This document shows positions 7,666-44,135 of a stretch of 64,000 nt of DNA, piece by piece; position 1 is the stretch's first letter; every line of letters starts with the position of its first letter. The notes beneath the pieces were generated by a model, which was not told where the DNA came from, made no database searches, and worked only from the letters and a program-made list of their open reading frames with translations. The translations under genes were made by a program, and so were the position numbers. The DNA is taken from the NCBI GenBank assembly GCA_036676315.1, contig JAKFDB010000067.1, positions 2,180-66,179 of the forward strand, written 5' to 3'. The stretch comes from Bradyrhizobiaceae bacterium (lineage in GTDB: Bacteria; Pseudomonadota; Alphaproteobacteria; Rhizobiales; Beijerinckiaceae).

Positions 7666-7690
7666 AACGGTCTGTTCAGGGAAAGGTTCC
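7666..7690 (-). promoter_or_regulatory. EcfG/sigmaT-type promoter GGAAC-N16-CGTT
   Basis: Minus strand reads GGAAC CTTTCCCTGAACAGAC CGTT, about 90 nt upstream of the TTG at 7573. Confidence 0.75.
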
Positions 7691-7712
7691 AGACGGGATT
7701 TTTTCGCCTGCC

Positions 7713-7729
7713 TTAACCACTCGTTCACC
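7713..7729 (+). promoter_or_regulatory. CtrA-binding box upstream of flhA
   Basis: TTAA-CCACTCG-TTCACC, one mismatch to TTAA-N7-TTAAC. Confidence 0.75.
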
Positions 7730-7798
7730 ATGCACCCGGCAAGAATTGCCGGGTACGGGTCGCGCCTCGCGATGACCGTGCATGGGGCGGGCTACTCG

Positions 7799-9925
7799 AT
7801 GAGCGATGTGACAGCAGGCGCGAGCGGCGGCATGACGATGCCGACCCGCGGCCAGATGGGCACCTGGCTCAACCGGCCGGACCTGTTCCTCGCCATCGGC
7901 GTGATGGGCATCCTCGTGGTGCTGATCTTCCCGCTGCCGGCGGTTCTGCTCGACCTGCTGCTGGCGCTCTCGATCATCCTGTCGGTGCTGGTGCTGATGA
8001 CGGCGCTGTTCATCGAGGAGCCGCTCGAGTTCTCCGCCTTCCCGACCGTGCTGCTGATCGTCACCATGTTCCGGCTGGCGCTCAACCTCGCCTCGACGCG
8101 CCTGATCCTGTCGCATGGGCATGAGGGCGGCGCGGCTGCCGGCCATGTCATCGAGGCCTTCGGCAACTTCGTGATGAGCGGCAATTTCGTGATCGGGGTG
8201 ATCGTCTTCACCATCCTGATCATCGTCAACTTCGTCGTCATCACCAAGGGTTCGGGCCGCATCGCCGAGGTTGCGGCGCGCTTCGCGCTCGACGCCCTGC
8301 CGGGCAAGCAGATGGCGATCGACGCCGATCTCTCGGCCGGGCTGATCGACCAGGATGTCGCCAAGGCCCGCCGCAAGGCGCTGGAGGACGAGGCCTCGTT
8401 CTTCGGCTCGATGGACGGCGCCTCGAAATTCGTGCGCGGCGACGCCATCGCCGGCCTGCTGATCACCTTCATCAACGTCATCGGCGGCATCATCATCGGC
8501 GTCGCGCAGCAGGGCATGAGCTTCGGCGCCGCCGCCACCAACTACACTCAGCTGACCGTCGGCGACGGCCTCGTCAGCCAGATCCCGGCCTTGATCGTCT
8601 CGACCGCGGCGGGCCTGCTCGTCTCGAAATCGGGCGTGCGCGGTGCCGCCGACAAGGCGCTGGGCAAGCAGCTCTCGGGCTATCCCAAGGCGCTCGGCAT
8701 GTCGGCGGCGGTGATGGCGCTGATCGCGGTCCTGCCCGGCATTCCCATGCTGCCTTTCCTCGCGCTCGCCGGCGGCGCGGCCTGGCTCGCCCGCCATTTC
8801 GGCCAGATCGGCAAGGCGCGCGAAGCGGAGACCGCGGCGCGGGCGGCGCAGGAGGCCTCGCCGCTGGCTGCCGACGGCACGCCGAAGGAAGAGACGCTGA
8901 ACGATCTGCTGAAGCTCGACGAGCTCAAGATCGAGATCGGCTACGGGCTGCTGCCGCTGGTCAACGCGCCGGGCGGGGCCGATCGCTTGACCGACCAGGT
9001 GAGGGCGCTGCGCCGCCAGCTTGCCGCGGAACTGGGCTTCGTCATGCCGGCGGTGCGGATCGTCGACAACGTCCAGCTCGAGGCGAACCACTACTACATC
9101 AAGATCAAGGAGATCGATGCCGGTCACGGCATCGTCTATGCCGGCCAGTACATGGCGATGGATCCGATGGGCGGCAGCGTCAACCTGCCGGGCCACAACG
9201 TGCTGGAGCCGACCTTCGGCCTGCCAGCGACCTGGATCGACGCCGCCCTGCAGGACGAGGCGCAGCTGCGCGGCTTCACCGTCGTCGACGCCGCGACCGT
9301 GATCTCGACGCATCTCACCGAGGTGCTGAAGTCGCACATGCCGGAGCTGCTCTCGCATGGCGAGGTGCAGAAGCTGCTGCGCGAACTACCCAAGGACCAT
9401 GCCGACCTGGTCAAGGAGATCGTGCCGAGCCAGATCTCGACCACCGGCATCCAGCGCGTGCTGCAGCTCCTGCTCGCCGAGCGCATCTCGATCCGCGACC
9501 TTGCGACCATCGTCGAGGGCATCGCCGAGGTCGCCGGCGGCATCAAGAACCCGCGCGACATTGCCGAGCACGTCCGGGTGCGGCTCGCCCGCCAGATCTG
9601 CGCGCAGTTCTCCAACCAGCACGGGCAGTTGCCGATCATCACGATGTCACCGGCCTGGGAGAGCGTCTTCGCCGAATCGATCGTCGGCCAGGGCGAGGAT
9701 CGCCACCTCGCCATGCAGCCCTCGCGCCTGCAGGACTTCGTCCATGCGGTGCGCGACAAGTTCGAGGATGCGGCGCGGATGGGCGAGATGCCGGCGCTCG
9801 TCACCTCCGGCATGTCGCGGCCCTTCGTGCGCCAGATCGTCGAGCGCTTCCGGCGCGAGACCCCGGTGCTCTCGCAGGGCGAGATCCATCCGCGGGCCAA
9901 GCTCCGGACGGTGGGGAGCGTGTAA
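7799..9925 (+). CDS. flhA: Flagellar export protein FlhA
   Basis: FSAFPTVLL, RIAEVAARFALDALPGKQMAIDADL and GSMDGASKFVRGDA; likely start MSDV at 7799. Confidence 0.97.
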   Translation: MSDVTAGASGGMTMPTRGQMGTWLNRPDLFLAIGVMGILVVLIFPLPAVLLDLLLALSIILSVLVLMTALFIEEPLEFSAFPTVLLIVTMFRLALNLASTRLILSHGHEGGAAAGHVIEAFGNFVMSGNFVIGVIVFTILIIVNFVVITKGSGRIAEVAARFALDALPGKQMAIDADLSAGLIDQDVAKARRKALEDEASFFGSMDGASKFVRGDAIAGLLITFINVIGGIIIGVAQQGMSFGAAATNYTQLTVGDGLVSQIPALIVSTAAGLLVSKSGVRGAADKALGKQLSGYPKALGMSAAVMALIAVLPGIPMLPFLALAGGAAWLARHFGQIGKAREAETAARAAQEASPLAADGTPKEETLNDLLKLDELKIEIGYGLLPLVNAPGGADRLTDQVRALRRQLAAELGFVMPAVRIVDNVQLEANHYYIKIKEIDAGHGIVYAGQYMAMDPMGGSVNLPGHNVLEPTFGLPATWIDAALQDEAQLRGFTVVDAATVISTHLTEVLKSHMPELLSHGEVQKLLRELPKDHADLVKEIVPSQISTTGIQRVLQLLLAERISIRDLATIVEGIAEVAGGIKNPRDIAEHVRVRLARQICAQFSNQHGQLPIITMSPAWESVFAESIVGQGEDRHLAMQPSRLQDFVHAVRDKFEDAARMGEMPALVTSGMSRPFVRQIVERFRRETPVLSQGEIHPRAKLRTVGSV

Positions 9926-9948
9926 CTTCCCCGCTTCAAGACATGCCG

Positions 9949-10053
9949 GTCATCCCGGCCGAAGCGAAGCGCAGAGCCGGGATCCATGCCCGAACCTCTC
10001 CGACCAAGGCTCAGGCATGGATCCCGGGCCTCCCTGCGGTCGCCCGGGATGAC
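9949..10053. repeat. Palindromic intergenic repeat (GTCA/CGTC-tagged REP-like), subfamily A
   Basis: GTCATCCCGG...CCGGGATGAC terminal inverted repeat with inner GGATCCATGCC/GGCATGGATCC; closely similar to 49775-49879. Confidence 0.85.
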
Positions 10054-10091
10054 ACGCGTTCCATGAACTCCTTGAGAGAGTCCCTAGGAGC

Positions 10092-10652
10092 TCAACGCCG
10101 CGCCACCACCACGAGATAGCGTGCCGACTCCGTACCCGGATTGCTGAAGCGGCAATCGCTCGGCGGACCGAGCTCCATGCAATCACCCGGTCCGAGCCGC
10201 GTGACGATGCCACCTTCGTCGAAGTCGAGCAGGCCCGACTGCATCCAGATCTGCTGGCGGATGAAGGCGTAGGAACTGGCGGGATAGCCGATCGCCGCGC
10301 CGGGCGGGAGTTCGCCGGCGACGAGCTCGAGGTCGCCATTGCCGGCCGGCGAAATCGCACGCCGGACAAAGCCGGTCTCGGGATCGCGCCAGGCAGGCTG
10401 GTCGGCGGCACGCCGGAGGCGCTCGCCGGTGCTCTCGATGCGGGCGAGCAGGTTGGATAGCGTCAGGCCGAAGGCACCGGAGAGGCGGCCGAGCAGCACC
10501 GCCGTCGGGCTGGCCTCGCCGCGCTCGATCCGGCTGATCATGGCGCGCGACACGCCCGAGCGCTCGGCGAGATCGTTCAGGCTCCAGCCGCGCGCCTCGC
10601 GCTCGCCGCGCAGCCGTTCCGCCATTCTTGACGCGAGATCGTCCACCATCAT
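10092..10652 (-). CDS. XRE-family HTH transcriptional regulator with cupin domain
   Basis: GWSLNDLAERSGVSRAMISRIERGEASPT followed by a cupin-like C-terminus. Confidence 0.9.
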   Translation of the reverse strand: MMVDDLASRMAERLRGEREARGWSLNDLAERSGVSRAMISRIERGEASPTAVLLGRLSGAFGLTLSNLLARIESTGERLRRAADQPAWRDPETGFVRRAISPAGNGDLELVAGELPPGAAIGYPASSYAFIRQQIWMQSGLLDFDEGGIVTRLGPGDCMELGPPSDCRFSNPGTESARYLVVVARR

Positions 10653-10769
10653 AGCGTCGATTCTCTTATCGTAGAAATCCGCCGCCGCCAACCGGCCCTG
10701 CGCGCTGGCCATGCCGGCATGCCGCGCCTGCTATGGCGGCCCTTGCCTGCTTCACCTAAGCCCCGCTTC

Positions 10770-12728: not shown

Positions 12729-12911
12729 GAAACCCGCAGGCGGCCGGACGGCGACGGAGGTGGCAGGAGAGGGACGAAGCTATGCGCAATCTGCAGCCTG
12801 CGCATGCGAAAACCGCGCGGGTCGCGTCCGCTTCTCTCTGCCAGCGGGCGGCGGCGAGGGCAAGCAGCCCGACAGGATTTAGCTCTCCCCGGGCGGCCTG
12901 CAGTAAGCTTC

Positions 12912-14069: not shown

Positions 14070-14082
14070 TGCGGGCGGGCGT

Positions 14083-14496: not shown

Positions 14497-14595
14497 GTCG
14501 GTTCTAACTCCTGATTACGCATGGTGTCGCACCGACCCCTCGGCGCGGCACCCGAACGACTTCCGCGAGACGAAAAGGACAATGGCGCAAGGAGG

Positions 14596-14610
14596 TTGAC
14601 CGTTCCTTAC
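14596..14610 (-). promoter_or_regulatory. CtrA-like box upstream of fliJ
   Basis: Minus strand GTAA-GGAACGG-TCAACC, two mismatches to consensus, about 100 nt upstream of fliJ. Confidence 0.45.
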
Positions 14611-14731
14611 CGGCAATGACCGCATTTGATGCATGTTGCATCTGCGCCGCGGAGCCTGTCGGCGGGGCGCTGCCTCGACTAATCTCGGCGGAATCAAGAA
14701 CCAGCACAACACGTGCTGCCGGACGTTCGCC

Positions 14732-15934: not shown

Positions 15935-16083
15935 ACCTGCCGGGCGCAAATGTCGCGGCCCGTGCCTTGAGTACGCCGTGTTAGCGCGGGAACGGTCTCA
16001 TACCGCAGTTCTTTCCCTCCCGAGACGATCGTGCCATCGCGGTGGCGATGTGCGCGGGCCCAATGTGAGAATCGCCCAGACCA

Positions 16084-31397: not shown

Positions 31398-33764
31398 CTA
31401 CACCGGCGGCGCGTTGGCCTTGCGGACGCGCTCGCCGACCGCCCGGAAGAGACCTTCGAAGGGGCGGAAGACGAAGCGGATCGTCGAGCGGCCGGGCGGC
31501 ACCTGCACGGCGCGGAAGATGACGTTCGCCCGAAGCAGCTCGGCCGGCTTGCCGTTGACCTCGACCTGCCACCAGGGCTGCCAGACATCGTTGAGGACGA
31601 CGAAGCCGCCGCGCGGCGCCTCCGCCTCCAGCGTGACCTCCGTGGTGCCGTAATCGCGGATGCTCACCGTGCCGGGCCCGGCAGCGCCGCCCGGCAGTAC
31701 GGGCGGCGTCCTGTCGAGCAACACCGTGCGCCGCGGATCGAAGCCGGCGGGCCATTGGCCGCTCTTCAGGATGGCGTCGAAATCGGCAGCTTGCGCCTCG
31801 CTGACGAGCAGGACGCGCGGCAGGGCGCGCGGGTTCTCGTAGATGAAGGCGTCGGCAGTGCGGGCGATCTGGATGAGGTCGCCGGGCTTCAGCGCCTTGT
31901 CGATCTGCTCGACCGGCACGCCGGTGGCGATGAAGCGCAGGCCGAGCATGTCGGCGAGCAGCGAGCGATAGGACGGCATCAGCGCCGAGAAGGTCCGCTG
32001 GTCGGGCAGGGCGACATGATCGCCGGCCCCGGTGGCGGCGCTGTAGAGGCCGAGCCGCAGGGGATTGTAGCCCAGCGTGTTGTCGAGGCCGTGGACGAGG
32101 CTGGCATTGGGCCAGTGGAAATCGATGCCGGCGAGCTCGATACGGTCGCGCCGGTCAGGCCCGGCGGTGCGGGCGGTCTCACGCTTGAGCAGTCCGATGG
32201 TCTCGTTGCTGCTGTCGGCGCGCAGCACCTCGTATCTGGATGCGGGCAGCGCCGTCGATTCGCTCGGGCCGTTGTTGACCGAGAGATCGATGGTCATGGT
32301 CATGGCGAGAATGATGGCAGCGCCCATGCCGGCGCCCTGCAGGGCCAGCCCGCGCGCCGCGACGAGGGCGCCTGCGACCAGCAGCAGGCAGAGTGCGGCG
32401 GTGATCAGCGGGATTGCGGCCACGCCGAGCCTTCCGCTCGTCCAGGCCAGCCAGATGGCGAGGCCGAAGGCGCCGCCGAGCAGCGCAACCTCGAGGACGA
32501 TCTGCCAGGGCCGGGGCCGCGGCGCCGTATCCGTCAGGACGAGGTGGGTGAAATAGCCGCCGAGGATCGCGAGCAGTGCGCCGAGGATGAAGAGCGCATC
32601 GGCCGGCCGGCGATAGAGATCGATGCCGGGAAGCGCGGCGAAGAGGATCTGGAAGCCCGGCGTGTAGCGTCCGAGCGCGTAGACCAGCACGAGGATGGCG
32701 GCGATGCTGAGCGCCACGATCTCGCGCCGCCAGAGGCCGCCGCGCACGAGGCCGACACCGACGACCAGCAGCAACGGCAGCAGGCCGAGATAGAGCTCGC
32801 TCATGTTGCGGGCGAGATAGAGATCGACCGGGCCGAAGCGTGCCTCCCAGGCCGGGCTCGGCGGCCCCCAGAAATTCTCCAGCGGGCCGGCGGCGCCATA
32901 GAGATTGGCGACGATCCCGGTCAGCAGCGAGGCCGGGTGCAGCGAGCCCTTGCCGGCACCGGCAAGGTCGATCGCGGGCCGGTTGGATTCCTGGGCCAGG
33001 AAGGCGGTGAGCAGGATCGGTACAGCGGCGACCAGCACCGCGCCGACGACGCCGAGGCAAAGCGGCATCAGGCTGGCCCGGAGGGCCTTCAGCGGCCGGC
33101 TCGCCATGGCGATCGCGGCGAGCACCAGGCCGGAGAGGACATAGACGCCGATCAGCGCGACCTGGTCGCGCCCGAGCACCATGAAGCCGGCGACGATGCC
33201 GGCGCAGAAGCCATAGCTCCAGGAGCCGCGCTCCAGCGCCCGCGAGAGCAGCAGCAGGGTGACGGCGAAATAAGCCAGGCTGAGTACCTGGCCGACATGC
33301 TGGATGCGCCAGGCGGCGGCGGCCCCGAAAGCGAAGGCGAGGGCGCAGACCACAGCGCCGGCCGGATGCCAGTTCCGGTCGCGGAAGACCAGGGCGAGGC
33401 AGAGCGCGCCGACCAGCAGGGAGCCGAGCAGCGCCCCGTCGCTCCAGCGGAAATCCGGGGTCGGGTTGACCAGGGCGATCAGGGCGAAGGGCGGCGAGAA
33501 GATCAGCGATTGCGGATCGGCGACCTGCGGCGAGCCGGCGAAGACGAAGGGCGTCCAGAACGGCGAAAGCCCCTTGTGCAGGGCGCTGGCGAGGAACTGC
33601 AATTGCGGGTGGAAATGCGCCTTGGCGTCCCAGGGAACGGTGAGGACGCCGGAAAGCCAGGGCCAGGACAGGGCGAGCCAGGCGGCGCAGATGATCAGGA
33701 AGACCTTGGCGACGGGCCAGGGTGCGCGCGCTGGCGCGGGATCGGGACGCTCTTGCTCGGACAT
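31398..33764 (-). CDS. YfhO-like polytopic membrane protein (putative GT-C glycosyltransferase)
   Basis: About 13 TM segments, N-terminal PWDAKAHF...WTPFVFAGSPQVADPQ and C-terminal GFVVLNDVWQPWW...RANVIFRAVQVPPG typical of YfhO. Confidence 0.7.
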   Translation of the reverse strand: MSEQERPDPAPARAPWPVAKVFLIICAAWLALSWPWLSGVLTVPWDAKAHFHPQLQFLASALHKGLSPFWTPFVFAGSPQVADPQSLIFSPPFALIALVNPTPDFRWSDGALLGSLLVGALCLALVFRDRNWHPAGAVVCALAFAFGAAAAWRIQHVGQVLSLAYFAVTLLLLSRALERGSWSYGFCAGIVAGFMVLGRDQVALIGVYVLSGLVLAAIAMASRPLKALRASLMPLCLGVVGAVLVAAVPILLTAFLAQESNRPAIDLAGAGKGSLHPASLLTGIVANLYGAAGPLENFWGPPSPAWEARFGPVDLYLARNMSELYLGLLPLLLVVGVGLVRGGLWRREIVALSIAAILVLVYALGRYTPGFQILFAALPGIDLYRRPADALFILGALLAILGGYFTHLVLTDTAPRPRPWQIVLEVALLGGAFGLAIWLAWTSGRLGVAAIPLITAALCLLLVAGALVAARGLALQGAGMGAAIILAMTMTIDLSVNNGPSESTALPASRYEVLRADSSNETIGLLKRETARTAGPDRRDRIELAGIDFHWPNASLVHGLDNTLGYNPLRLGLYSAATGAGDHVALPDQRTFSALMPSYRSLLADMLGLRFIATGVPVEQIDKALKPGDLIQIARTADAFIYENPRALPRVLLVSEAQAADFDAILKSGQWPAGFDPRRTVLLDRTPPVLPGGAAGPGTVSIRDYGTTEVTLEAEAPRGGFVVLNDVWQPWWQVEVNGKPAELLRANVIFRAVQVPPGRSTIRFVFRPFEGLFRAVGERVRKANAPPV

Positions 33765-33788
33765 GGCCGCTTCCTGCCCCAGGCCCCG

Positions 33789-33836
33789 CACGGGATCAAT
33801 GCCCGACACGGGATCAGTGCCCGGCGCGAGGTCAAT
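33789..33836. repeat. 18-nt-period tandem repeat at the ribA 3' end
   Basis: CACGGGATCAATGCCCG (33789), CACGGGATCAGTGCCCG (33807) and a degenerate third copy CGCGAGGTCAAT overlapping the ribA stop. Confidence 0.6.
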
Positions 33837-34959
33837 CCTTCGGTGCGGCCCGCGCCATCAGCGCGTCCATGTCGATGAAATGGCCGGCCCGGTCGCGCTT
33901 CGAGGCGAGGTAGCGGACATTGTGGACGTTGGGGCGCCCGAGCACGCGCTGGGTCGCCGCGACTTCCAGCCCGGCCGCCTTGATCGCGCCGACCTTGAGC
34001 GGGTTGTTGGTCAGCGCCGTGATCCTGCTGACGCCGAGCTGGGTCAGCATCGCGGCGGCGAAGTCGAAATGGCGCTGGTCGAGATCGAAGCCGAGCACTT
34101 CGTCGGCGTCGTAGGTGTCCCAGCCCTGGCTCTGCAGCTTGTAGGCGCGCATCTTGTTGGAGATGCCGTTGCCGCGGCCTTCCTGGTCGAGATAGAGCAG
34201 GATGCCGCCCTCGTTCTGGGCCATCCACTCGACCGTCTCGCGCAACTGGTCGCCGCAATCGCATTTCAGCGAGCCGAACAGGTCGCCGGTCAGGCAGGCG
34301 GAGTGCAGGCGCACCGGTACGGCGGCCGAGAGGTCCGGCTTGCCGACGATGATCGCCACCTGATCGCGCAGGCCCTCGCCGCCGCGGAAGACCACGAATT
34401 CGGTATCGGGCGCGCCTTCCAGCGGCACCGGCGCGCGGCCGACGATGGCGAGCGTCGCCACCTGCGCGGCACGGTAGCCGTTGATGGCGGTGATGTTGGC
34501 CTCGACCAGCGGCTCCCCGGCGATTTGCGCCGCGGCAACCGGCACCAGGACCACCGCCGGCAGGACGAGCGCAAGCCGTGCCAGTTCGAGTGCCGCGGTG
34601 TCGAGCGCGTTGGCCGGACCGACCGGCGCATCGACGCGCGCCTCGATCTTGAGGGCAAGGGCTTCGACGCGGGCGATGTCGATTGCGGGCATGGCGAGGA
34701 CGCCGGTCTCGCTGCGGCCCTTGGCTCCAAGGCGGCGCAGGCGTGCGGCGCTCAGCACCAGCCGGGCATTGCCTTCGGCGAGGCCGTCGAGCCGCCCGGC
34801 GATGTCGGTGTCGGCGAGCTCTGCCGAAAGCGCCAGCGCCAGCGTCTCGCCGTCGCGCAGCAGCACGGGTCGGCCGGCACGGAATTCGGCGAGTGCCCGG
34901 TCGACTGCGATGATCTCGGTCTCGCCGGGACGGCCGAAAAGCGTACGCGACTTAGGCAT
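33832..34959 (-). CDS. ribA: GTP cyclohydrolase II with degenerate RibB-like N-terminal domain
   Basis: VRLHSACLTGDLFGSLKCDCG Zn motif, QEGRG and TNNPLK. Confidence 0.92.
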   Translation of the reverse strand: MPKSRTLFGRPGETEIIAVDRALAEFRAGRPVLLRDGETLALALSAELADTDIAGRLDGLAEGNARLVLSAARLRRLGAKGRSETGVLAMPAIDIARVEALALKIEARVDAPVGPANALDTAALELARLALVLPAVVLVPVAAAQIAGEPLVEANITAINGYRAAQVATLAIVGRAPVPLEGAPDTEFVVFRGGEGLRDQVAIIVGKPDLSAAVPVRLHSACLTGDLFGSLKCDCGDQLRETVEWMAQNEGGILLYLDQEGRGNGISNKMRAYKLQSQGWDTYDADEVLGFDLDQRHFDFAAAMLTQLGVSRITALTNNPLKVGAIKAAGLEVAATQRVLGRPNVHNVRYLASKRDRAGHFIDMDALMARAAPKD

Positions 34960-35060
34960 GGCTGCGTCCGTCAGATTGCGCCGGCTAGCGGCGGAGGAGA
35001 TGGTCTAATACGCTCGTCTCGGCGGGACGGATGCCATCCGGCGCAATACGGCGTTGCTAC

Positions 35061-35085
35061 AACGTGTCCAGTCGTGTGTGGTTCC
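35061..35085 (-). promoter_or_regulatory. EcfG/sigmaT-type promoter upstream of ribA
   Basis: Minus strand GGAAC CACACACGACTGGACA CGTT (N16), about 100 nt upstream of the ATG. Confidence 0.75.
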
Positions 35086-35229
35086 CAAATTCGTGAGCTC
35101 AGCCGGATTTCAGGCGACTTTCGAAAGCCATCCGGTTGGCCGCAGTGTGGCGTATAAGAACGGGACGTTGAACGCGAGATGAATGGCGGTGCCAGGCCCT
35201 AATCTGGGGCATCGAGGGGTGGATGCGAA

Positions 35230-35814
35230 ATGATGCAGGCACATGACCCCATGACCGGGATCGCAGGTCGTGATGCCGTCTACAGCGCCGCGGCGCGGCG
35301 GTTCCACTGGGTCACGGTGGCGGCGGTCTTCGTGATGATCCCGCTGGGCCTTGGCATGACCTATCGCGGCAACACGCTCAATCTCTGGGACGGGCTGACC
35401 AACGGGCTCTATTCCGCGCACAAGCTGCTCGGCTTCATCGTGCTCTGGCTGACTGCCGGCCGGCTGGTCCACCGGCTGCTGCGCGGCGCTCCGCCTGACG
35501 AGCCGACACTCGAATGGTGGCAGAAGGCCGCGTCCCATCTGGTCCATTGGGCGCTCTACGGATTGCTGCTCGCGGTGCCCTTGCTGGGCTGGATCGGGGT
35601 CTCGCTGTTTCCGGCGCTGACGATCTTCGACCTGTTCAACCTGCCGGCGCTGGCCAGGCCCGATGAGGAGGCTGCCAAGCGGGTGCTTGCGCTGCATGGC
35701 TGGCTCGCGAGGCTGCTGGCGCTCGCCATAGTCGGGCATATCGGCGCGGCGCTCTATCACTACTTCATCCGCAAGGATGGCGTGCTGCGGCGCATGCTGC
35801 CGGGGGTGAGATAG
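35230..35814 (+). CDS. Cytochrome b561 (YceJ/CybB-like)
   Basis: RRFHW, HKLLG, SHLVHWALY and HGWL...GHIGAALYHYF...VLRRML heme-ligand pattern. Confidence 0.9.
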   Translation: MMQAHDPMTGIAGRDAVYSAAARRFHWVTVAAVFVMIPLGLGMTYRGNTLNLWDGLTNGLYSAHKLLGFIVLWLTAGRLVHRLLRGAPPDEPTLEWWQKAASHLVHWALYGLLLAVPLLGWIGVSLFPALTIFDLFNLPALARPDEEAAKRVLALHGWLARLLALAIVGHIGAALYHYFIRKDGVLRRMLPGVR

Positions 35815-35817
35815 GCC

Positions 35818-36336
35818 TCACCAACGGCCGTCGGCGGGTTCCCCCGCGGCGATTTCGGCGAGCCGGCGACGTGTGCCGGGCGTCGTGCCTTCCGGCAGGG
35901 CCGAAAGCGCGAAGAAGCCCGCTTCGGCGATCTCGTAATCGGGCCGTTTCGGCGCGGGTGGCGCGAAATCGCGGACCACGAAGACCGCGACATGATCGCG
36001 CTGCGAGCTCTCGCAGCTGAGAAACAGCCCGTGCAGCACGGCCGGCCCGCTCAGCACGACATTGGCCTCCTCGCGTAGCTCCTTGCTGAGCGCCTCGGCG
36101 GCGGTCTCGCCCGGCTCGACGCCGCCGCCCGGCAGGTGCCAGCCGGGCGTGTAGGTGTGGCGCACCAGCAGGACCTCGCCCGCCTCGTTCAGGACGGCGC
36201 CGCGGACGCCCAGCGTCATGCCGCGGCTGACCCGGAAATACAGGTGCAGCACCTGGCCGATCAGGCGCCGCAGCGGCCTGGGCAGCCGATCGATGGGCGC
36301 GCGCGACGGGTTTCGCATCGGAGTCGAACTGCTCAT
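35818..36336 (-). CDS. NUDIX hydrolase (start 36336 or 36318)
   Basis: LPGGGVEPGETAAEALSKELREEA Nudix box. Confidence 0.9.
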   Translation of the reverse strand: MSSSTPMRNPSRAPIDRLPRPLRRLIGQVLHLYFRVSRGMTLGVRGAVLNEAGEVLLVRHTYTPGWHLPGGGVEPGETAAEALSKELREEANVVLSGPAVLHGLFLSCESSQRDHVAVFVVRDFAPPAPKRPDYEIAEAGFFALSALPEGTTPGTRRRLAEIAAGEPADGRW

Positions 36337-36371
36337 TTCAGCGCCATTTTCCAAAGCGTCGCTCAATTGTC

Positions 36372-36388
36372 TATGCAAGGTATGCATA
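36372..36388. promoter_or_regulatory. LysR-type palindrome (T-N11-A)
   Basis: TATGCA-AGGTA-TGCATA, i.e. ATGC-N7-GCAT, in an AT-rich divergent intergenic region. Confidence 0.55.
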
Positions 36389-36474
36389 ACAGCTCTCTGT
36401 TTGGCCTCGGGCTCCAACACAAACGCGCCGCAAATCAGGAGGATAAAGCCGACATCACCGCTGGGGAATTCGTC

Positions 36475-36591
36475 ATGTTGCTCGCCCTCATCACCTCCTG
36501 GTTTCAGGCCAAGCCCGCCTTCGTCTGGAAGCCGGCGTTGACCCTGACCGACCCGCGCATCGTCTCCGAGCTGACCGCCTCGCTCAACTGA
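36475..36591 (+). CDS. Putative 38-aa small protein MLLALITSWFQAKPAFVWKPALTLTDPRIVSELTASLN
   Basis: Nearly all codons end in G/C like host genes; sits in an otherwise empty gap downstream of the palindrome. Confidence 0.6.
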   Translation: MLLALITSWFQAKPAFVWKPALTLTDPRIVSELTASLN

Positions 36592-36674
36592 GCCGGCCGC
36601 GGGCCCTGCGTCACATTCATCCGATTGCGCGTCTGCGCTTGACTGCGCCTGCCTGCTGAGGGCAAGCGCAAGGC

Positions 36675-37574
36675 GTGTTCACGCTTGCGCATCTGTCGGA
36701 CCCGCATCTCGGGCCGCTCGCCCGGTTCTCCCTGCGGGAGCTGATCGGCAAGCGCGCGACCGGCTATGTCAACTGGCGGCGGAAACGCCGCCATGCGCAT
36801 GACATGGAGATCCTCGGGCTGATCGTCGCCGATATCCTGGCGCAGAAGCCCGACCACATCGCCTGCACCGGCGACGTCTCCCATATCGGCCTGCCGAACG
36901 AGTTCAAGACGGCGCTGACCTTCCTCGACACGCTCGGCCCGCGCGAGAAGGTCTCGTTCGTCCCCGGCAATCACGACGCCTATGCCCGCTCCTCGCTGAA
37001 AGCGCTGGCCGGCGAACTCGGTCCCTGGTGCGCCAGCGACGACGGCGAGGCCGGCTACCCCTGGTATCGCCGGCGCGGCCCGGTCGCTCTGATCGGCATG
37101 AACACCGGCATCCCGACGCTGCCGCTGATGGCGACCGGCCGCATCGGCCCGGCGCAGATCGTCCTGGCGGAGCGAATGCTCGCGCAGGCCAAGGCCGACG
37201 GCCTGATCCGCGTCATCCTGATCCATCACCCGCCCTATGTCGGCGGTGCCCGGCGCACCCGTGAACTGCTCGACGCGCCGGCCTTCGAGGCGATGCTGGC
37301 GCGTGTCGGGGCCGACCTCGTCCTGCACGGCCATAATCACCGCTTCTCACTGGCCTGGCGGCCGGGCGCGGGCCGGGACGTGCCGATCGTCGGCGTGCCC
37401 TCGGCCTCGATCGGGCCGCGCGGCGGCCATGGCGAGCTCGCCTCCTGGCATCTGCTGCGGATCGAGGGGACGGCGGAGGCTCCGGCGATCACCCTCGAAC
37501 GGCGCTGCTTCGACCTCGACGGCACGGTGAAGCTGCAGCAGTCGATACCGCTGATCGGCGGCGGGATGGTCTAG
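36675..37574 (+). CDS. Calcineurin-like metallophosphoesterase
   Basis: LSDPH, TGD, VPGNHD, HHPP and LHGHNH motifs; GTG start. Confidence 0.92.
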   Translation: MFTLAHLSDPHLGPLARFSLRELIGKRATGYVNWRRKRRHAHDMEILGLIVADILAQKPDHIACTGDVSHIGLPNEFKTALTFLDTLGPREKVSFVPGNHDAYARSSLKALAGELGPWCASDDGEAGYPWYRRRGPVALIGMNTGIPTLPLMATGRIGPAQIVLAERMLAQAKADGLIRVILIHHPPYVGGARRTRELLDAPAFEAMLARVGADLVLHGHNHRFSLAWRPGAGRDVPIVGVPSASIGPRGGHGELASWHLLRIEGTAEAPAITLERRCFDLDGTVKLQQSIPLIGGGMV

Positions 37575-37585
37575 GAACCGGCGTC

Positions 37586-37681
37586 GTCATTCTCGGGCGA
37601 AGCGCAGCGCAGACCCGAGAATCCCATGACGAGAAGGTGCCTCTTCCGGCGCGAGATGCTCGGATCAAGTCCGAGCATGAC
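37586..37681. repeat. CGTC-tagged palindromic repeat, subfamily B
   Basis: GTCATTCTCGGGCGAAGCGCAGCGCAGACCCGAGAATC...GATGCTCGGATCAAGTCCGAGCATGAC; similar to 52807 and (reversed) 41034. Confidence 0.85.
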
Positions 37682-37694
37682 GCGTGTCTCGCCG

Positions 37695-38441
37695 TCAGAC
37701 GCAGCGGCCGCCGTCGACGGCGAGCACCGAGCCGGTCACCATCTCGGATTCATCCGAGCACAGGAACAGCGCTGCGTTGGCGATGTCCTGCGGCGTCGAG
37801 AAGCGGCCCCAGGGTATCGTCGCGGTGAAGGCCTTGCGCTTCTCCGGCGTGTCCTCGCCCATGAAGGTCGCGAGCAGCGGCGTCTCGCCGGCGACCGGGG
37901 CGATGGCGTTGACGCGGATCCGGTCAGGCGCGAGCTCGACGGCCATCGACTTGGAGAGCAGGTTCGCGGCGCCCTTCGAGCCATTGTACCAGGTCAGACC
38001 GGGCCGGGGGCGCACGCCCGCGGTCGAGCCGATATTGAGGATGACGCCGCCGCCATGCTCGCGGAAATGCGGCACCGTCGCCTTGGCCATCAGGTAGATC
38101 GACTTGACGTTGACGTCGAAGACGCGGTCGAATTCGGCCTCGCTGACGTCGAGCATCGGCTGGTTGCGATGGCTGATGCCGGCATTGTTGACGACGATGT
38201 CGAGCCGGCCGAAGCGGGCGATCACCTTCGCCACGGCGCTGTCGACGCTCTTGCCCTTGCCGACGTCGCAGGCGACCGCGAAGGCCTTGCGGCCGATCGC
38301 CTTAGCCGCTTCCTTCGCCTTGTCGCCGTTGATGTCGAGCACGGCGACGCGGGCGCCCTCGCGCACGAAGGTCTCGGCGATGCCGAAGCCGAACCCCTGC
38401 GCCGCGCCGGTAATCAGCGCGGTCTTGCCCTTCAGTCTCAT
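37695..38441 (-). CDS. SDR family oxidoreductase (FabG-like)
   Basis: TGAAQGFG, NNAG and YNGSK motifs. Confidence 0.92.
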   Translation of the reverse strand: MRLKGKTALITGAAQGFGFGIAETFVREGARVAVLDINGDKAKEAAKAIGRKAFAVACDVGKGKSVDSAVAKVIARFGRLDIVVNNAGISHRNQPMLDVSEAEFDRVFDVNVKSIYLMAKATVPHFREHGGGVILNIGSTAGVRPRPGLTWYNGSKGAANLLSKSMAVELAPDRIRVNAIAPVAGETPLLATFMGEDTPEKRKAFTATIPWGRFSTPQDIANAALFLCSDESEMVTGSVLAVDGGRCV

Positions 38442-38580
38442 GGTGTTTCCTCGGATGCTTTCTGCCGCGCGACTGTGGGGCGATTTGCCGGCCGGGATAA
38501 ATACGCTTTCGCGATTGGGCGGATAGCGAAAAGGTATGGGCCGATGGCGTTCTCGGGCGGAGCGCCGGATGAAGGGCGCG

Positions 38581-38720
38581 GGGAACCCTTCTCCCGTGTG
38601 GGAGAAGGGCAGGGATGAGGGCCTGCCCTATCCGCAGAAGGCACAGCGACCCTGCATCGCTTCAATAATCAGCGGCGGTCCCTCACCCCTGCCCCTCTCC
38701 CATCCGGGAGAGGGGTTCCC
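38581..38720. repeat. MITE-like CCCTCTCCC/GGGAGAGGG family repeat
   Basis: 15-bp near-perfect terminal inverted repeats GGGAACCCTTCTCCC / GGGAGAGGGGTTCCC, each end folding into its own hairpin. Confidence 0.75.
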
Positions 38721-38726
38721 CGCGCC

Positions 38727-40538
38727 TTACGCCCCGATTTCCTCGCGCAGCATCTCCAGCTCCAACCAGCGCTCCTCGGCCTCGGCGATCTCGCGCGTCA
38801 CCTCGTCCAGCCGGGCGGTCGCCTTGGCGAAGAGCTTCGGGTCGCGGGTGTAGAGATCGCCCGCCAGCGCGGCGTTGAGTTTGCCGGCCTCGGTCTGCAG
38901 CTTCCCGAGCTGCTGGGGCAGCGTCTTCAGAGCGTGCTGCTCGTTGAAGGAGAGCTTGCGCTTCGGGGCTGTCGCGCCTGCTGCGAGGGCGGCCTTCTGC
39001 GGCCCGGACGCAGCCGTCTTCACCGGGACGGCGCGCGCCTTGGCGCCGACGCCGCGGCCGCGCTGGGCCAGCATGTCGGAATAGCCGCCGGCGAACTCGG
39101 TCCAGACGCCGTCGCCGTCCGAGATCAGGGTCGAGGAGACGACGCGGTCGAGGAAGTCGCGGTCATGGCTGACCAGCAGCACGGTGCCGGCATAGTCGGC
39201 GAGCAGTTCCTGCAGCAGGTCGAGCGTTTCGATGTCGAGATCGTTGGTCGGCTCGTCGAGCACCAAGAGGTTGGAGGGCTTGGCGAGGGCGCGGGCCAGC
39301 ATCAGCCGGCCACGTTCGCCACCCGAGAGCGCGCCGACCGCGGTGCCGCGCTGGATCGGCTGGAACAGGAAGTCCTTCATGTAGCTGATGACATGGCGCG
39401 GCTGGCCGCCGACCATGATCTGGTCCGAGCCGCCGCCGGTCAGCGCGTCGCCGAGCGGCGTCGCCGGATCGAGGCTCTCGCGGCGCTGGTCGAGCGTCAC
39501 CATCTCGAGCGTGGCGCCGAGCTTGACCTTCCCTGAGTCGGGCTTGAGCGCGCCGGTGAGCAGGTTGATCAGTGTCGTCTTGCCGGCGCCGTTGGGACCG
39601 ACAATGCCGATGCAGTCGCCGCGGGCGACGCGCAATGAGAAGTCCTTGACCACCGGCCGACCGTCATAGGCCTTGGCGATGTCGACGGCCTCGATCACCA
39701 GCTTGCCGGAGGCCTGCGCCTCGCTCGCTTCGAGCCGGACGGAGCCGACGGCGTGGCGGGCGGTGCGGCGCTGCTCGCGCAGGCCATGCAGTTCGCCGAG
39801 CCGGCGCTGATTGCGGGTGCGCCGGGCGCTGACGCCGTAGCGCAGCCAATCCTCCTCGCGGGCGATCTTGCGGTCGAGCTTGTGGCGGTCGAGTTCCTCC
39901 TGCGCCAGCACCTCGTCGCGCCAGGCCTCGAACTCGCCGAAGCCGCGCTCGACGCGCCGGGTGACGCCGCGGTCGAGCCAGATCGTGGCGCGCGAGAGCG
40001 AGCTCAGGAAGCGGCGGTCATGGCTGATCAGCACCATGGCCGAGCGCAACGATTTCAGCTCCTGCTCGAGCCATTCGATCACGGGCAGGTCGAGATGGTT
40101 GGTCGGCTCGTCGAGCAGCAGGATGTCGGGCTCGGGCGCGAGCACGCGGGCGAGTGCGGCGCGGCGCGATTCGCCGCCCGACATGCTGGCCGGATCTTCC
40201 TCGCCGGTCAGGCCCAGTTCCTCGATCAGGTATTGCGCGCGATAGGCATCGTCGCCGGGTCCGAGCCCCGCCTCGACATAGGAAAGCGAGGTCTTGTAGC
40301 CGGAAAAGTCGGGCTCTTGCGGCAGATAGCGGATGGTCGCGCCCGGCTGGACGAACCGCTCGGCGCTGTCCGGCTCGACCAGCCCAGCCACGATCTTGAG
40401 CAGGGTCGACTTGCCGGAGCCGTTGCGGCCGACCAGGCAGACCCGCTCGCCGGCGGAAACCGCGATCTCGGCGCCCTCGAGCAGCGGATGGCCGCCGAAG
40501 GTGAGAGCAACGTCGCGGAGATGCAGCAGGGGGGCCAT
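38727..40538 (-). CDS. uup: ABC-F ATP-binding protein, Uup-like
   Basis: Two ABC domains (GRNGSGKST, GPNGAGKTT), LLDEPTNHLD and a C-terminal KRKLSFNEQ coiled coil; no TM segments. Confidence 0.85.
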   Translation of the reverse strand: MAPLLHLRDVALTFGGHPLLEGAEIAVSAGERVCLVGRNGSGKSTLLKIVAGLVEPDSAERFVQPGATIRYLPQEPDFSGYKTSLSYVEAGLGPGDDAYRAQYLIEELGLTGEEDPASMSGGESRRAALARVLAPEPDILLLDEPTNHLDLPVIEWLEQELKSLRSAMVLISHDRRFLSSLSRATIWLDRGVTRRVERGFGEFEAWRDEVLAQEELDRHKLDRKIAREEDWLRYGVSARRTRNQRRLGELHGLREQRRTARHAVGSVRLEASEAQASGKLVIEAVDIAKAYDGRPVVKDFSLRVARGDCIGIVGPNGAGKTTLINLLTGALKPDSGKVKLGATLEMVTLDQRRESLDPATPLGDALTGGGSDQIMVGGQPRHVISYMKDFLFQPIQRGTAVGALSGGERGRLMLARALAKPSNLLVLDEPTNDLDIETLDLLQELLADYAGTVLLVSHDRDFLDRVVSSTLISDGDGVWTEFAGGYSDMLAQRGRGVGAKARAVPVKTAASGPQKAALAAGATAPKRKLSFNEQHALKTLPQQLGKLQTEAGKLNAALAGDLYTRDPKLFAKATARLDEVTREIAEAEERWLELEMLREEIGA

Positions 40539-40659
40539 GGCGTTCCTTCGATGTCAGGCCGCCCGGATAGACCGCCCGGCCGCCACTGTCACGCCCGGCA
40601 CCGAATTTGCCTGTCCACCATAGGATACGAATCGTATCTTTTAGTGGATGAGAGGCCCT

Positions 40660-41016
40660 GTGAGACAGCCGAAGCTTCGCAAGCCCCGCCCGGCGAGGAT
40701 GGGCGACAATGGCGGCCCGCCGCTGGTGGAGAAGCCGCATGAACCGGAATGGGGCAAGGGCGAGATCGCCCGCTATTTCGAGTGGCGTACCGCGCATCGC
40801 AAGGCCTGGCGCAAGCCGAGCGGCATCGTGCTGCGGCGGATGGAGCGGGCCGAGGAACTCGGCCTGACCTATGAGGAATATACGCTGGAAATCATGGAGC
40901 GCGGCTATTTCCCGCAGCCCGAACATGTCGCGGCGATTGTGGCGAGACGGCCGGAGCGGCGGCGCGCCGGCGGCGTGGTCGGCCAATCGCTGAAGGGCAT
41001 GCGGCTGAAGGGGTAG
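40660..41016 (+). CDS. Small conserved-looking hypothetical protein (GDNGGPPL...GLTYEEY)
   Basis: GAGG RBS before the GTG at 40660; host-like codon usage. Confidence 0.7.
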   Translation: MRQPKLRKPRPARMGDNGGPPLVEKPHEPEWGKGEIARYFEWRTAHRKAWRKPSGIVLRRMERAEELGLTYEEYTLEIMERGYFPQPEHVAAIVARRPERRRAGGVVGQSLKGMRLKG

Positions 41017-41033
41017 CGGACGAGCACGGGGCC

Positions 41034-41144
41034 GTCATGCCCGGGCTTGACCCGGGCATCCCCGGGCAGAGATTCTCGGATCTGCGCGGAGTTTATCCTT
41101 GGGCCGACCGAAGGTCGGACCCGAGGGCTCCGCCCGAGAAGGAC
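41034..41144. repeat. Subfamily B repeat (reverse orientation) carrying a nested 39-nt hairpin insert
   Basis: GTCATGCCCGGGCTTGACCCGGGCATC...GCTCCGCCCGAGAAGGAC; extra segment at 41088-41126. Confidence 0.75.
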
Positions 41145-41159
41145 GCGGCGCTCAGGCTT

Positions 41160-42203
41160 TCACGCCCGCAGCAGGCGCCGCAGCGTCTTCGTCAGCGGCC
41201 GCTCGAACCAGCGGTACACGGCGAAGGCGGCAAGGATCGCGGCGGCCAGCGCCGCCACGACGAACAGTCCCGTCGCCCCGGGAGCGACGCGCAGGAAAAG
41301 CTCGCGCATGGCGCGCATCGCAAAGGGATGGATGAGATAGAGCGCATAGGAGGCGTCGCCGAGCCGGGCGAGCAGGCGCACCAGCGCCGAGGGCGCCGAC
41401 CGTCCCTTGCCGCAGGCGGCGGCGGTAACGAGGAGGAGCGCCGCCGGGCCGCGAAAGGCGAGGGATCCCCAGGGCGTCTCGGCCCAGGCATTGCCGACTG
41501 CCGCGACCAGCAGCGCCGTTCCGGCCGCGACCATCAGCCAGCGCAAACGGCCATCGAGGCGCAGGCCGCGGTTCCGTAGCAGGGCGACCGCCATGCCGCC
41601 GGCGAATTCGAGCACGATCGGCTGGCCCCAGAAGCCGAAAGGCAGCGGCAGGGGGCCGGCAGCCTCGGCGGCGACCAGCCCCGCCAGCGCCAGAGCCGTC
41701 GCCGGCACGACCAGCGCGCGCGGCAGCAGCAGCGCCGCCGCGAACAGGGCGTAGAACAGCATCTCATAGTTCAGCGTCCAGCCCAGCGAATAGACCGGCT
41801 GGAGGGCGCCGGCGGCGTTGGGAGCCGGCCAGAACAGGTAGGAGGCGGCGATCTGCCCGAATGTCGGGGCGGCCGAGTTGACCAGGGCCGGCGAGGCAGC
41901 GAGCACGAGCAGGAACAAGGTCGTCGCCGCCCAGTAGAGCGGCACGATCCGGGCGACGCGGCGGGCGAGGAAAAGGCGCGCGCCGTCGCGTTTGCCGAAC
42001 AGGCCGGCCGAGGCGTGGACCATGATGAAGCCGGAGATGACGAAGAACAGGTCGACGCCGGCGGTCCAGGGCAGCAGGTGCCAGGGCGAGAACTGCGCGC
42101 CGGCCCGCTCCGCCAGGAAGCCGGCATCCGACTGGACATGGTGCACGGCGACCATCAGCGCCGCGAGCGCGCGCAGGACCTGGATGCCGTAGAGCTGGGA
42201 CAA
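41160..42203 (-). CDS. Acyltransferase-3 (OafA-like) membrane O-acyltransferase; start uncertain (TTG 42203)
   Basis: IQVLRALAALMV, GVDLFFVISGF, GWTLNYEMLFY and LGDASYALYLIH. Confidence 0.88.
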   Translation of the reverse strand: MSQLYGIQVLRALAALMVAVHHVQSDAGFLAERAGAQFSPWHLLPWTAGVDLFFVISGFIMVHASAGLFGKRDGARLFLARRVARIVPLYWAATTLFLLVLAASPALVNSAAPTFGQIAASYLFWPAPNAAGALQPVYSLGWTLNYEMLFYALFAAALLLPRALVVPATALALAGLVAAEAAGPLPLPFGFWGQPIVLEFAGGMAVALLRNRGLRLDGRLRWLMVAAGTALLVAAVGNAWAETPWGSLAFRGPAALLLVTAAACGKGRSAPSALVRLLARLGDASYALYLIHPFAMRAMRELFLRVAPGATGLFVVAALAAAILAAFAVYRWFERPLTKTLRRLLRA

Positions 42204-42264
42204 GGCGGGCGCGGCTCGAAAGCGAGAAAGGGAGTGCTGCGGCGTCAGGCGAGCCGCAGCGGGT

Positions 42265-43269
42265 TCACGCAAACCACAACCGCGCGGGATCGTCGAGCCC
42301 GAAACGCGCCGGCGCGCTGGCGATCGCGGCGATACCCCGTTCGGCGGGGGCGTCGCAGGTGATGACATGCAGGGCGAAGCGGGCTGCGAGATCCTCGACC
42401 GGCGGCTTGCCGCTGAACACGGCGTGGATCGTCGCTTTGTCGGCGAGCGGCAGGATACGCGGCGCGATGCCGCCGGCAAGATAGACCCCGCCGGTCGCCT
42501 TGAAGGCGAGGGCGAGATCGCCGGCGACGCGCGCCAGCAAGCGCCAGAAGCAGATGACGGCCTTCAGCGCCGCCGGGTTGCCGTCGAGGGCGAGGGTGGT
42601 GACGTCGGCGGCGCTGACATCGGGCTCGGAGAGGCCGGATTCCTGCACTACGGCCCGGTGGAAGCGCACGAGCCCGTCGCCGCGCAGCAGCGCCTCGATC
42701 GTCACACGCGGCAGGCCTTCCGCCAGTGCTGGCCAGAGCCGTGTCTCGGCCGGGTCCTCCGGGCCGATGCCGATATGGCCGCATTCGGTCGGCACCAGCA
42801 CGCCGGCCTTGCCGCGCATCAACAGCGCTGCGGCGCCGAAGCCGGTGCCGGGCCCGAGCACCAGGCGCGGGCCGGTCGCCTCGGGCCGGCCCGGCACCAG
42901 GGTCGTGACGTCGCCCTCGCGCAGCACGGCGAGCGAAGCGGCCAGAGACTCGAAATCATTGACCAGCAGGCCCTGCTCGAACCCGAGCGCCTGCGCCAGC
43001 TGCGGCCCGTCGAAGTGCCAGTTTGCATTGGTCAGCTGGGCCGCGCGCCCGTCGAGCGGACCGGCGACCGCCAGGATCGCCGAGCGCGGCCTGTCGTGGA
43101 GCGTGGCGAGCACTGCTTCGAGTGCGGCTTCCGGGGTCGGATGGGCACCAGTACTGATGCGGGCGAGGGGCTCCGGCTCGGCGCCGTGCTTGGACAGCAG
43201 CGACAGACGACAGTTCGTGCCGCCGATGTCGGCGATCAGGACCGGGCAGGGGAAGAGCGGGGCGCTCAA
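42265..43269 (-). CDS. glk: Glucokinase (Glk family)
   Basis: DIGGTN, VNDF, GPGTGFG, TECGH and YLAGGI. Confidence 0.88.
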   Translation of the reverse strand: MSAPLFPCPVLIADIGGTNCRLSLLSKHGAEPEPLARISTGAHPTPEAALEAVLATLHDRPRSAILAVAGPLDGRAAQLTNANWHFDGPQLAQALGFEQGLLVNDFESLAASLAVLREGDVTTLVPGRPEATGPRLVLGPGTGFGAAALLMRGKAGVLVPTECGHIGIGPEDPAETRLWPALAEGLPRVTIEALLRGDGLVRFHRAVVQESGLSEPDVSAADVTTLALDGNPAALKAVICFWRLLARVAGDLALAFKATGGVYLAGGIAPRILPLADKATIHAVFSGKPPVEDLAARFALHVITCDAPAERGIAAIASAPARFGLDDPARLWFA

Positions 43270-44045
43270 GCCGGCGCCTTCCAGTCGGCAAACCAGCCCA
43301 GCCCTTCGAGCGTGCCGGCGCGCGGGCGGTACTCGCAGCCGACGAAGCCGGGATAGCCGAGCGAATCGAGCTGGGTGAACAGTCGCGGATAGTCCGGCCT
43401 GGTGCCGTCAGGCTCGTGCCGGCCCTCGGCATTGGCGATCTGGACATGGCCGACGAGCGGGTAGAGTGCCTCCAGGCGTGCGCCGACACCGCCGTGGATC
43501 AGCTCGCAGTGATACATGTCGAACTGCAGCTTGACGTTCGGCCGGCCGGATTCGCGGACATAGGCCGCTGCCTGGTCGAAGTCGTTGAGGAAATAGCCCG
43601 GCATGTCCTTGCCGTTGATCGGCTCGAGCAGGAGGTCGATGCCGTGCTCGCCGAGCTTGTCGGCGGCATAGGCGAGCGAGGCACGATAGGCCTCCTGCGC
43701 CGCGGGATCGTTCGGGTCGGCGTGGCCGGCCATCATGTGAAGGCGCTTGACCCCGGTCTCGTGGACATAGGCCAAGGCAGTCTCGATGCCCTTGCGGAAT
43801 TCGGCCTCGCGGCCGGGGATCGCGGCCATGCCGCGCTCGCCCTTGTCCCAGTCGCCCGGCGGCAGGTTGAACAGGGCCTGTTCGAGTTCGCCGCCGGCCA
43901 GGGCGAGACCGACCTTCTCCGCTGGGTGCTCATAGGGAAAGAGGAATTCGACGGCCTCGAAGCCGGCCTCGGACGCCGCCTTGAAGCGGTCGAGGAAGGC
44001 CCATTCGGTGAACATCATCGAAAGGTTGGCGGCGAAGCGAGGCAT
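43266..44045 (-). CDS. hyi: Hydroxypyruvate/2-oxo-tetronate isomerase family (Hyi/OtnI)
   Basis: MPRFAANLSMMFTE, LLEPIN, QFDMYH and GHVQIA...GRHEP. Confidence 0.85.
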   Translation of the reverse strand: MPRFAANLSMMFTEWAFLDRFKAASEAGFEAVEFLFPYEHPAEKVGLALAGGELEQALFNLPPGDWDKGERGMAAIPGREAEFRKGIETALAYVHETGVKRLHMMAGHADPNDPAAQEAYRASLAYAADKLGEHGIDLLLEPINGKDMPGYFLNDFDQAAAYVRESGRPNVKLQFDMYHCELIHGGVGARLEALYPLVGHVQIANAEGRHEPDGTRPDYPRLFTQLDSLGYPGFVGCEYRPRAGTLEGLGWFADWKAPA

Positions 44046-44110
44046 GGAATTCTCTTCAATCGATTCAGCCGGGGCAAGCTAGTCCGATCCGCCCGCCGCG
44101 TCATGCGGAT

Positions 44111-44135
44111 AACGCGACTGGCGGCACTCCGTTCC
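44111..44135 (-). promoter_or_regulatory. EcfG/sigmaT-type promoter upstream of hyi-glk-acyltransferase
   Basis: Minus strand GGAAC GGAGTGCCGCCAGTCG CGTT (N16), about 65 nt upstream of the ATG. Confidence 0.72.

Follow-up and report, generated by a model that had tools for sequence, protein, structure and literature searches.

Predicted EcfG-type stress promoters upstream of ribA, a glucokinase operon and a small twin-arginine-signal gene in Bosea

The closest described counterparts of the sites reported here are the promoters of EcfG (ECF15; also SigT, RpoE2 or RpoE4), the sigma factor of the extracytoplasmic function (ECF) type that serves the alphaproteobacterial general stress response and is governed by the PhyR-NepR-EcfG partner switch, as known from Sphingopyxis granuli TFA, Rhizobium etli and Sphingomonas melonis. 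The conventional promoter of this type, GGAAC-N16-CGTT, combines an almost invariant -35 box with a flexible -10 box (PMC7083833, PMC3892343, PMC6599016). Three exact copies of the motif, designated P1, P2 and P3, are present in the 64-kb stretch of contig JAKFDB010000067.1 analyzed here (the window). They precede a small gene with a twin-arginine (Tat) signal, ribA followed by a membrane-protein gene, and an operon encoding an OtnI/Hyi-type isomerase, a glucokinase and a membrane acyltransferase. All three are very probably promoters read by RNA polymerase carrying EcfG, the general-stress ECF sigma factor of this Bosea genome. A search of the accessible literature for ribA with a membrane protein, for the OtnI/Hyi-glk-acyltransferase combination, for glucokinase or hydroxypyruvate isomerase and for the arginine-rich Tat mini-protein found none of them associated with EcfG, RpoE2, SigT or PhyR, and yielded no experimental study of the general stress regulon of Bosea. 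The predictions below provide a first sequence-based list of targets for the general stress response of this genus.

Motif matches in the window and across the genome

A pattern search of the window for GGAAC-N16-CGTT recovered exactly the three matches listed by an earlier sequence-only reading, all on the minus strand (Table 1). In 100 dinucleotide-preserving shuffles, the mean number of matches was 0.20 and none of the shuffles reached three. Site context was judged with a genome-wide gene map based on codon usage; this map is heuristic and wrong in places. Each of the three sites is intergenic and oriented toward a minus-strand gene, as that reading had proposed, and its estimate of 65–100 nt to the start codon agrees with the measured distances of 65–101 nt. 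From the end of each site to the start codon there are 92 nt for P1 (TTG at 7573-7571; 80 nt if an alternative TTG at 7585 is used), 101 nt for P2 (ribA ATG at 34959) and 65 nt for P3 (otnI/hyi ATG at 44045). The reading's chance rate of about 0.4 matches per 64 kb is also close to the measured background of 0.46 per 64 kb, which corresponds to the 40 genome-wide N16 matches falling outside the intergenic and oriented class.

Widening the spacer to N15-17 added no exact site in the window. A search that allowed one mismatch gave only two N17 candidates, located upstream of fliJ and of a gene for a TlpA-like thiol:disulfide protein. Both were left out of the count, since the one-mismatch motif classes are only weakly enriched genome-wide, and they are probably chance matches. 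An Rfam search of the whole window detected no known RNA element.

The draft genome (5.56 Mb, 67% G+C) was scanned for GGAAC-Nx-CGTT with spacers of 12 to 20 nt, and a match was counted as promoter-like when it was exact, intergenic and oriented to a gene start within 300 nt. From x = 12 to x = 20, the numbers of all matches are 24, 37, 16, 17, 69, 26, 10, 31 and 17, and the numbers of promoter-like matches are 0, 5, 0, 1, 29, 10, 1, 5 and 1. The scan revealed an excess that depends on both spacing and orientation: 29 promoter-like matches at N16 and 10 at N17 versus 0–5 at each of the seven control spacings (12–15 and 18–20). This implies that approximately 85–90% of the promoter-like N16/N17 matches are real sites. 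In coding DNA, matches are most numerous at x = 13, 16 and 19. Because of this three-base periodicity the raw spacing counts overstate the signal, and the raw background at N16 is raised about two-fold by the codon phase. Errors in the gene map, for example on contigs C113 and C166, affect the counts slightly and do not affect the contrast between spacings.

The genes behind the other predicted promoters encode CsbD, DUF892, PRC-barrel, DUF883, Transgly_assoc (transglycosylase-associated), DUF1236 and BrkB proteins, as well as a low-affinity iron permease, Phasin_2, GCS2, OpgC, MdoG/OpgG and a ROK-family kinase. These are typical general-stress families, and the exact motifs before opgC and mdoG/opgG suggest that periplasmic-glucan genes may belong to the Bosea stress regulon.

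With 29 N16 sites, or 39 when N17 sites are included, the expected number of exact promoters per 64 kb is 0.33–0.45. The Poisson probability of three sites is ~0.005–0.01 for one given window and ~0.3–0.6 for some window among the ~87 that the genome holds. Three sites in 64 kb are thus mildly above expectation, and they are scattered members of a genome-wide set. The notion of a hidden regulon in this window finds no support in this comparison, as the three sites are three of ~39 exact promoters spread over the genome.

Table 1 Predicted promoters, associated genes and related motifs. Coordinates refer to the window unless a contig is named.
Feature	Position	Strand	Details
P1, predicted EcfG-type promoter	7666-7690	-	GGAAC 7690-7686, CGTT 7669-7666; predicted start ~7660-7658
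Small exported-protein gene	7229-7573	-	114 aa from TTG 7573; twin-arginine signal DRRSFV, arginine-rich repeat tail
Intrinsic-terminator-like hairpin	7197-7220	-	10-pair stem with 9 G-C pairs, T-rich tail TTTCCTTCTC; directly 3' of small gene
P2, predicted EcfG-type promoter	35061-35085	-	GGAAC 35085-35081, CGTT 35064-35061; predicted start ~35055-35053
ribA, GTP cyclohydrolase II with degenerate RibB-like N-terminal half	33832-34959	-	NF006456, 493 bits (above cut-off); PF00925
803-aa polytopic membrane protein gene	31398-33809	-	weak GT-C-type similarity
P3, predicted EcfG-type promoter	44111-44135	-	GGAAC 44135-44131, CGTT 44114-44111; predicted start ~44105-44103
Operon	41160-44045	-	otnI/hyi 43266-44045, glk 42265-43269, Acyl_transf_3 membrane acyltransferase 41160-42272
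One-mismatch N17 motif	15989-16014	+	CTTT -10 box; before TlpA-like thiol:disulfide protein gene
One-mismatch N17 motif	14581-14606	-	CATT -10 box; before fliJ
phyR	contig C24		NF006623, 376 bits (cut-off 240)
nepR	contig C24		divergent from phyR; PF18557, 51 bits
ecfG	contig C24		with nepR; NF009199, 252 bits (cut-off 219)
Exact EcfG-type motif before opgC	C11:48715		
Exact EcfG-type motif before mdoG/opgG	C78:43474		
Exact EcfG-type motif before ROK-family kinase gene	C162:12272		

Three transcription units and their conservation in Bosea

RibA homologues with 80–95% identity are found almost exclusively in Bosea species, and the genome was accordingly taken as that of a Bosea species. Examination of the regions upstream of orthologous genes, a check put forward by the sequence-only reading, showed that all three sites are held in position across Bosea. 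The boxes are fixed at the orthologues while the spacers diverge, and the motif is absent upstream of the isomerase homologues sampled outside the genus, which argues that the three sites are under selection in Bosea. Among the genomes sampled, the promoter wiring of these units appears to be specific to this genus.

In 64 of 80 Bosea-type loci, ribA has an exact N16 or N17 motif 89–123 nt upstream (the first sample gave 13 of 16). The only loci without it are those of a more distant clade (68–70% protein identity) and a second ribA-like copy. The spacers of these sites vary widely between loci. In an unanchored alignment of 69 distinct ribA upstream regions, both boxes emerge as conservation peaks over a background of 30–60%. 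The membrane-protein gene directly follows ribA, within a few tens of bases, in 75 of the 80 loci, and no terminator is predicted between the two genes, which are probably co-transcribed. Family searches upheld the gene names given by the sequence-only reading to RibA, OtnI/Hyi, the glucokinase and the acyltransferase, but the identification of the 803-aa protein as YfhO was rejected, as the scores for YfhO (15.5 bits) and PMT_2 (22.4 bits) are both below the cut-offs. As far as the evidence goes, this protein may be described as GT-C-like.

The genome encodes two further homologues of GTP cyclohydrolase II. A RibBA-like gene on contig C8 (2931-4187) comprises a DHBP-synthase half and a cyclohydrolase-like half that lacks the Cys-x10-Cys-x-Cys zinc site ('RibBX' type), and the third homologue is a URC1-like protein encoded beside upp. 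Among these homologues, the ribA gene of the window is therefore the only one that both retains the zinc site and can be assigned to riboflavin synthesis. Near the URC1-like gene, a conserved N17 EcfG-type motif is seen on contig C113 (29988-30013, minus strand; also at loci L025-L030) before a gene for a very hydrophobic 53-aa peptide, which lies ~240 nt upstream of the URC1-like gene, followed by upp.

In the P3 unit, the isomerase stop codon overlaps the glk start, and the glk stop codon overlaps the start of the acyltransferase gene. The first product is a TIM barrel of the OtnI/Hyi type (NF043033, 345 bits), the second a glucokinase (PF02685) and the third a member of the Acyl_transf_3 family; the genome has no PF02685 gene other than glk. 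In each of the 30 Bosea loci hyi and glk are neighbors, and the acyltransferase gene accompanies them in 27. All 30 carry GGAAC-N16/17-(C/G)GTT upstream of hyi, exact in 23 and ending in AGGTT in the remaining seven, which belong to one clade. The motif lies 62–71 nt upstream in 27 loci and 93–175 nt upstream in three, and it stays with the operon where the upstream neighbor, TauE in the window, is replaced by another gene. The upstream regions of 22 isomerase homologues from other genera of the order (49–64% identity) contain no site with fewer than two mismatches, and these 22 genes have no glk or acyltransferase neighbors. The leaders of ribA (34962-34990, minus strand) and of the isomerase operon (44056-44105, minus strand) contain short blocks, GCCGGCGCAATCTGACGGACGC, CATGACGCG and ACTAGCTTGCC, that are conserved as strongly as the promoter boxes and have no Rfam match.

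Homologues of the small Tat-signal protein were found in 41 of 41 Bosea genomes, and searches of Pfam and NCBIfam gave no match for it. Upstream of the gene, 13 loci have the exact motif and about 10 more differ in the first base of the -10 box (TGTT or GGTT), together ~23 of 30. The distance is 79–93 nt in most loci and 115 nt in one (L070). The common pattern is GGAACC(T/C)TT..TGAAC..(C/T/G)GTT; the spacer is nearly invariant across the Bosea loci and resembles that of the nepR promoter discussed below, and an A-tract (7704-7699) lies upstream of the -35 box of P1. A strong terminator-like hairpin immediately follows the small gene, which argues that the P1 unit is monocistronic and that the adjacent gene for a major facilitator superfamily (MFS) transporter is probably not co-transcribed. 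Most likely, P1 would drive the small gene by itself.

The MFS gene (5717-7150) is flanked by two paralogous small genes, the one behind P1 and another at 5192-5521 on the minus strand. The product of each has a Tat signal and ends in an arginine-rich repeat tail, and each gene has its own terminator; only the gene at 7229-7573 carries the EcfG motif, and none was found upstream of the paralogue. Many orthologues contain one in-frame TGA within the aligned region. In one Bosea clade, the small-gene unit resides on another contig or ~0.9 Mb away.

On the other side of P1 is flhA (7772-9925, FHIPEP). The possibility that P1 lies inside an N-terminally extended flhA was considered and rejected: the N-terminus that the extension would add is implausible and not conserved, homology to FHIPEP begins well downstream, and the conserved DNA lacks a third-position pattern. 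Between P1 and flhA, a genus-invariant block (7712-7754, plus strand) comprises CTTAACCACTCGTTCAC, similar to a CtrA box (TTAA-N7-TTCAC), and after it the perfect hairpin CCCGGCAAGAATTGCCGGG. This block is probably a promoter or operator of flhA.

Regulators and alternative explanations

Family profile searches show that contig C24 encodes the full PhyR-NepR-EcfG module, adjoined by genes for an HWE-type kinase and a single-domain response regulator. NepR is detectable in a single copy in the genome. An exact motif at C24:40114-40138, with the sequence GGAACCTTTCGCATTCAGGATCGTT, is located 65 nt upstream of nepR and would be the expected autoregulated promoter of nepR-ecfG. In all 30 Bosea genomes examined, GGAAC..nGTT occupies the same place before nepR-ecfG; the -10 box is CGTT in 13 and TGTT in most others, and 29 of the 30 have a run of T after GGAAC. 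P1 and the nepR promoter have in common the extended -35 box GGAACCTTT and the -10 box CGTTAT. Altogether, six exact motifs are clustered within 6 kb at this general-stress locus (34428-40138), the nepR site and five more. Among them is a back-to-back pair (37898 on the minus strand and 37933 on the plus strand) predicted to drive two small genes of unknown function. The presence of the PhyR-NepR-EcfG module, the motif at nepR-ecfG, the genome-wide excess and the conservation in Bosea together support the view of the sequence-only reading that the window's motifs are EcfG-type promoters.

Several observations weigh against the assignment to EcfG. No exact motif is present upstream of phyR. A tblastn search detected five further ECF-like sigma genes, two of them 36–44% identical to EcfG, and the sites could be shared with, or taken over by, one of these, such as the closest paralogue (44% identical, contig C108). 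The gene map on which the counts depend is itself heuristic and contains errors such as those on C113 and C166. Furthermore, ribA and glk are single-copy housekeeping genes that must be expressed without stress as well, which requires either another promoter or basal EcfG activity. A simple scan found no sigma-70-like site for ribA or glk, nor any near the three motifs, which is weak evidence in DNA of 68% G+C. The EcfG promoter at these two genes may be an additional stress-responsive input, or basal EcfG activity may suffice.

The same paralogues raise the question of whether the sites are real ECF-type promoters used by a different sigma factor, either the C108 protein or another ECF factor whose specificity is GGAAC/CGTT-like. 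The signal to which the genes respond would then be narrower than that of the general stress response. A -35 box with AAC and a -10 box with CGT are common to many ECF groups. The AAC triplet is typical of ECF sigma factors (PMC7083833). Nevertheless, nepR-ecfG itself has the identical motif in front of it, with the extended -35 box and CGTTAT included, classic general-stress families make up the predicted regulon, and the genome has a single NepR. The shared nepR promoter and the regulon content favor EcfG over the C108 paralogue, and a paralogue that shared these promoters would still act within that response, which is the case in Sphingopyxis and Rhizobium etli (PMC7083833, PMC3892343). Use by a different ECF sigma factor is thus quite unlikely. 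It seems extremely unlikely that any of the three sites is an intergenic chance match devoid of promoter activity. The control spacings do yield up to five promoter-like matches genome-wide, so that some 2–5 of the 29 N16 sites are expected to be false, but in dozens of Bosea species each site of the window keeps its distance from the gene while the bases within the spacer and around the site vary, and a site with fewer than two mismatches occurs in 0 of the 22 upstream regions of non-Bosea homologues.

A further question is whether the three units, driven by EcfG, constitute one dedicated stress-protective pathway, for example one that attaches a GTP-derived compound to an envelope glycan. 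The sequence-only reading had suggested that they act in one process. The GT-C-like gene placed directly after ribA would fit such a pathway, as would the envelope-glucan theme that OpgC, MdoG/OpgG and the ROK kinase of the wider predicted regulon share with glk and the acyltransferase gene. The ribA and isomerase units are also 9–10 kb apart in every Bosea genome checked that has both on one contig, but conserved spacing within a genus is ordinary synteny. A common global stress sigma factor does not imply a common pathway, given that the motif is found at ~39 unrelated units, about 36 of them beyond these three. Moreover, the small gene is monocistronic and lies elsewhere in one clade, and ribA and glk, as the only canonical copies, serve ordinary metabolism. 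A single dedicated pathway is therefore very unlikely, and the suggestion of a joint process was not sustained.

Predicted action of EcfG and comparison with known systems

By the established mechanism, stress-activated HWE/HisKA2 kinases would phosphorylate PhyR, and phospho-PhyR would sequester the anti-sigma factor NepR to free EcfG. Free EcfG is expected to bind GGAAC (-35) and CGTT (-10), 16–17 nt apart, with transcription starting a few bases downstream. In the window, this would raise transcription of the monocistronic gene for the small Tat-exported arginine-rich protein, of ribA with the large GT-C-like membrane protein gene, and of the isomerase-glucokinase-acyltransferase operon. 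These three units would be scattered members of a regulon of roughly 35–50 promoters genome-wide.

Since ribA and glk are the sole canonical copies, they are better viewed as housekeeping genes boosted under stress than as parts of a dedicated pathway. It is plausible that stress raises the flavin supply. It may also raise the supply of glucose-6-phosphate for trehalose or periplasmic glucans, an idea that fits the presence of OpgC and OpgG in the predicted regulon and that of trehalose genes in other EcfG regulons (PMC6599016). A more specific and unlikely variant holds that ribA and its membrane-protein partner under stress produce or export a compound other than ordinary riboflavin, and that glk and the acyltransferase feed a stress-induced acylated periplasmic glucan. 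In that case, the product of the ribA pair might be a flavin, or an envelope or secreted compound derived from a pyrimidine, and the general stress response would have recruited both units next to OpgC and OpgG.

The mechanism is textbook, and the practical value of the predictions lies in annotation and in easily testable promoters. In Bosea, two single-copy housekeeping genes, ribA for the first step of riboflavin synthesis and glk for glucose phosphorylation, stand behind conserved predicted stress promoters. The other members of the order that were sampled lack these promoters, an example of the speed at which EcfG regulons are rewired.

Stress control of this first riboflavin-synthesis step has a precedent. 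Escherichia coli ribA is stress-inducible and belongs to the SoxRS superoxide regulon. As predicted for Bosea, the gene is placed under a stress regulator and nonetheless remains a housekeeping gene. The regulator in E. coli is the activator SoxS, in contrast to an ECF sigma factor, and E. coli ribA is not known to be co-transcribed with a membrane protein gene.

The Bosea system resembles known EcfG systems in its motif, GGAAC-N16(17)-CGTT, with a nearly invariant -35 box and a flexible first -10 base, and in a distance to the start codon that is mostly under 100–150 nt. It also resembles them in an apparently autoregulated nepR-ecfG operon divergent from phyR, and in a predicted regulon with many small proteins whose function is unknown (CsbD, PRC, DUF883 and ferritin-like DUF892). 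It differs in that the wiring of the targets described here is confined to Bosea among the genomes sampled. Overall, the findings add a sound though ordinary case to a regulatory system that is well known, with targets that are genus-specific and include housekeeping genes.

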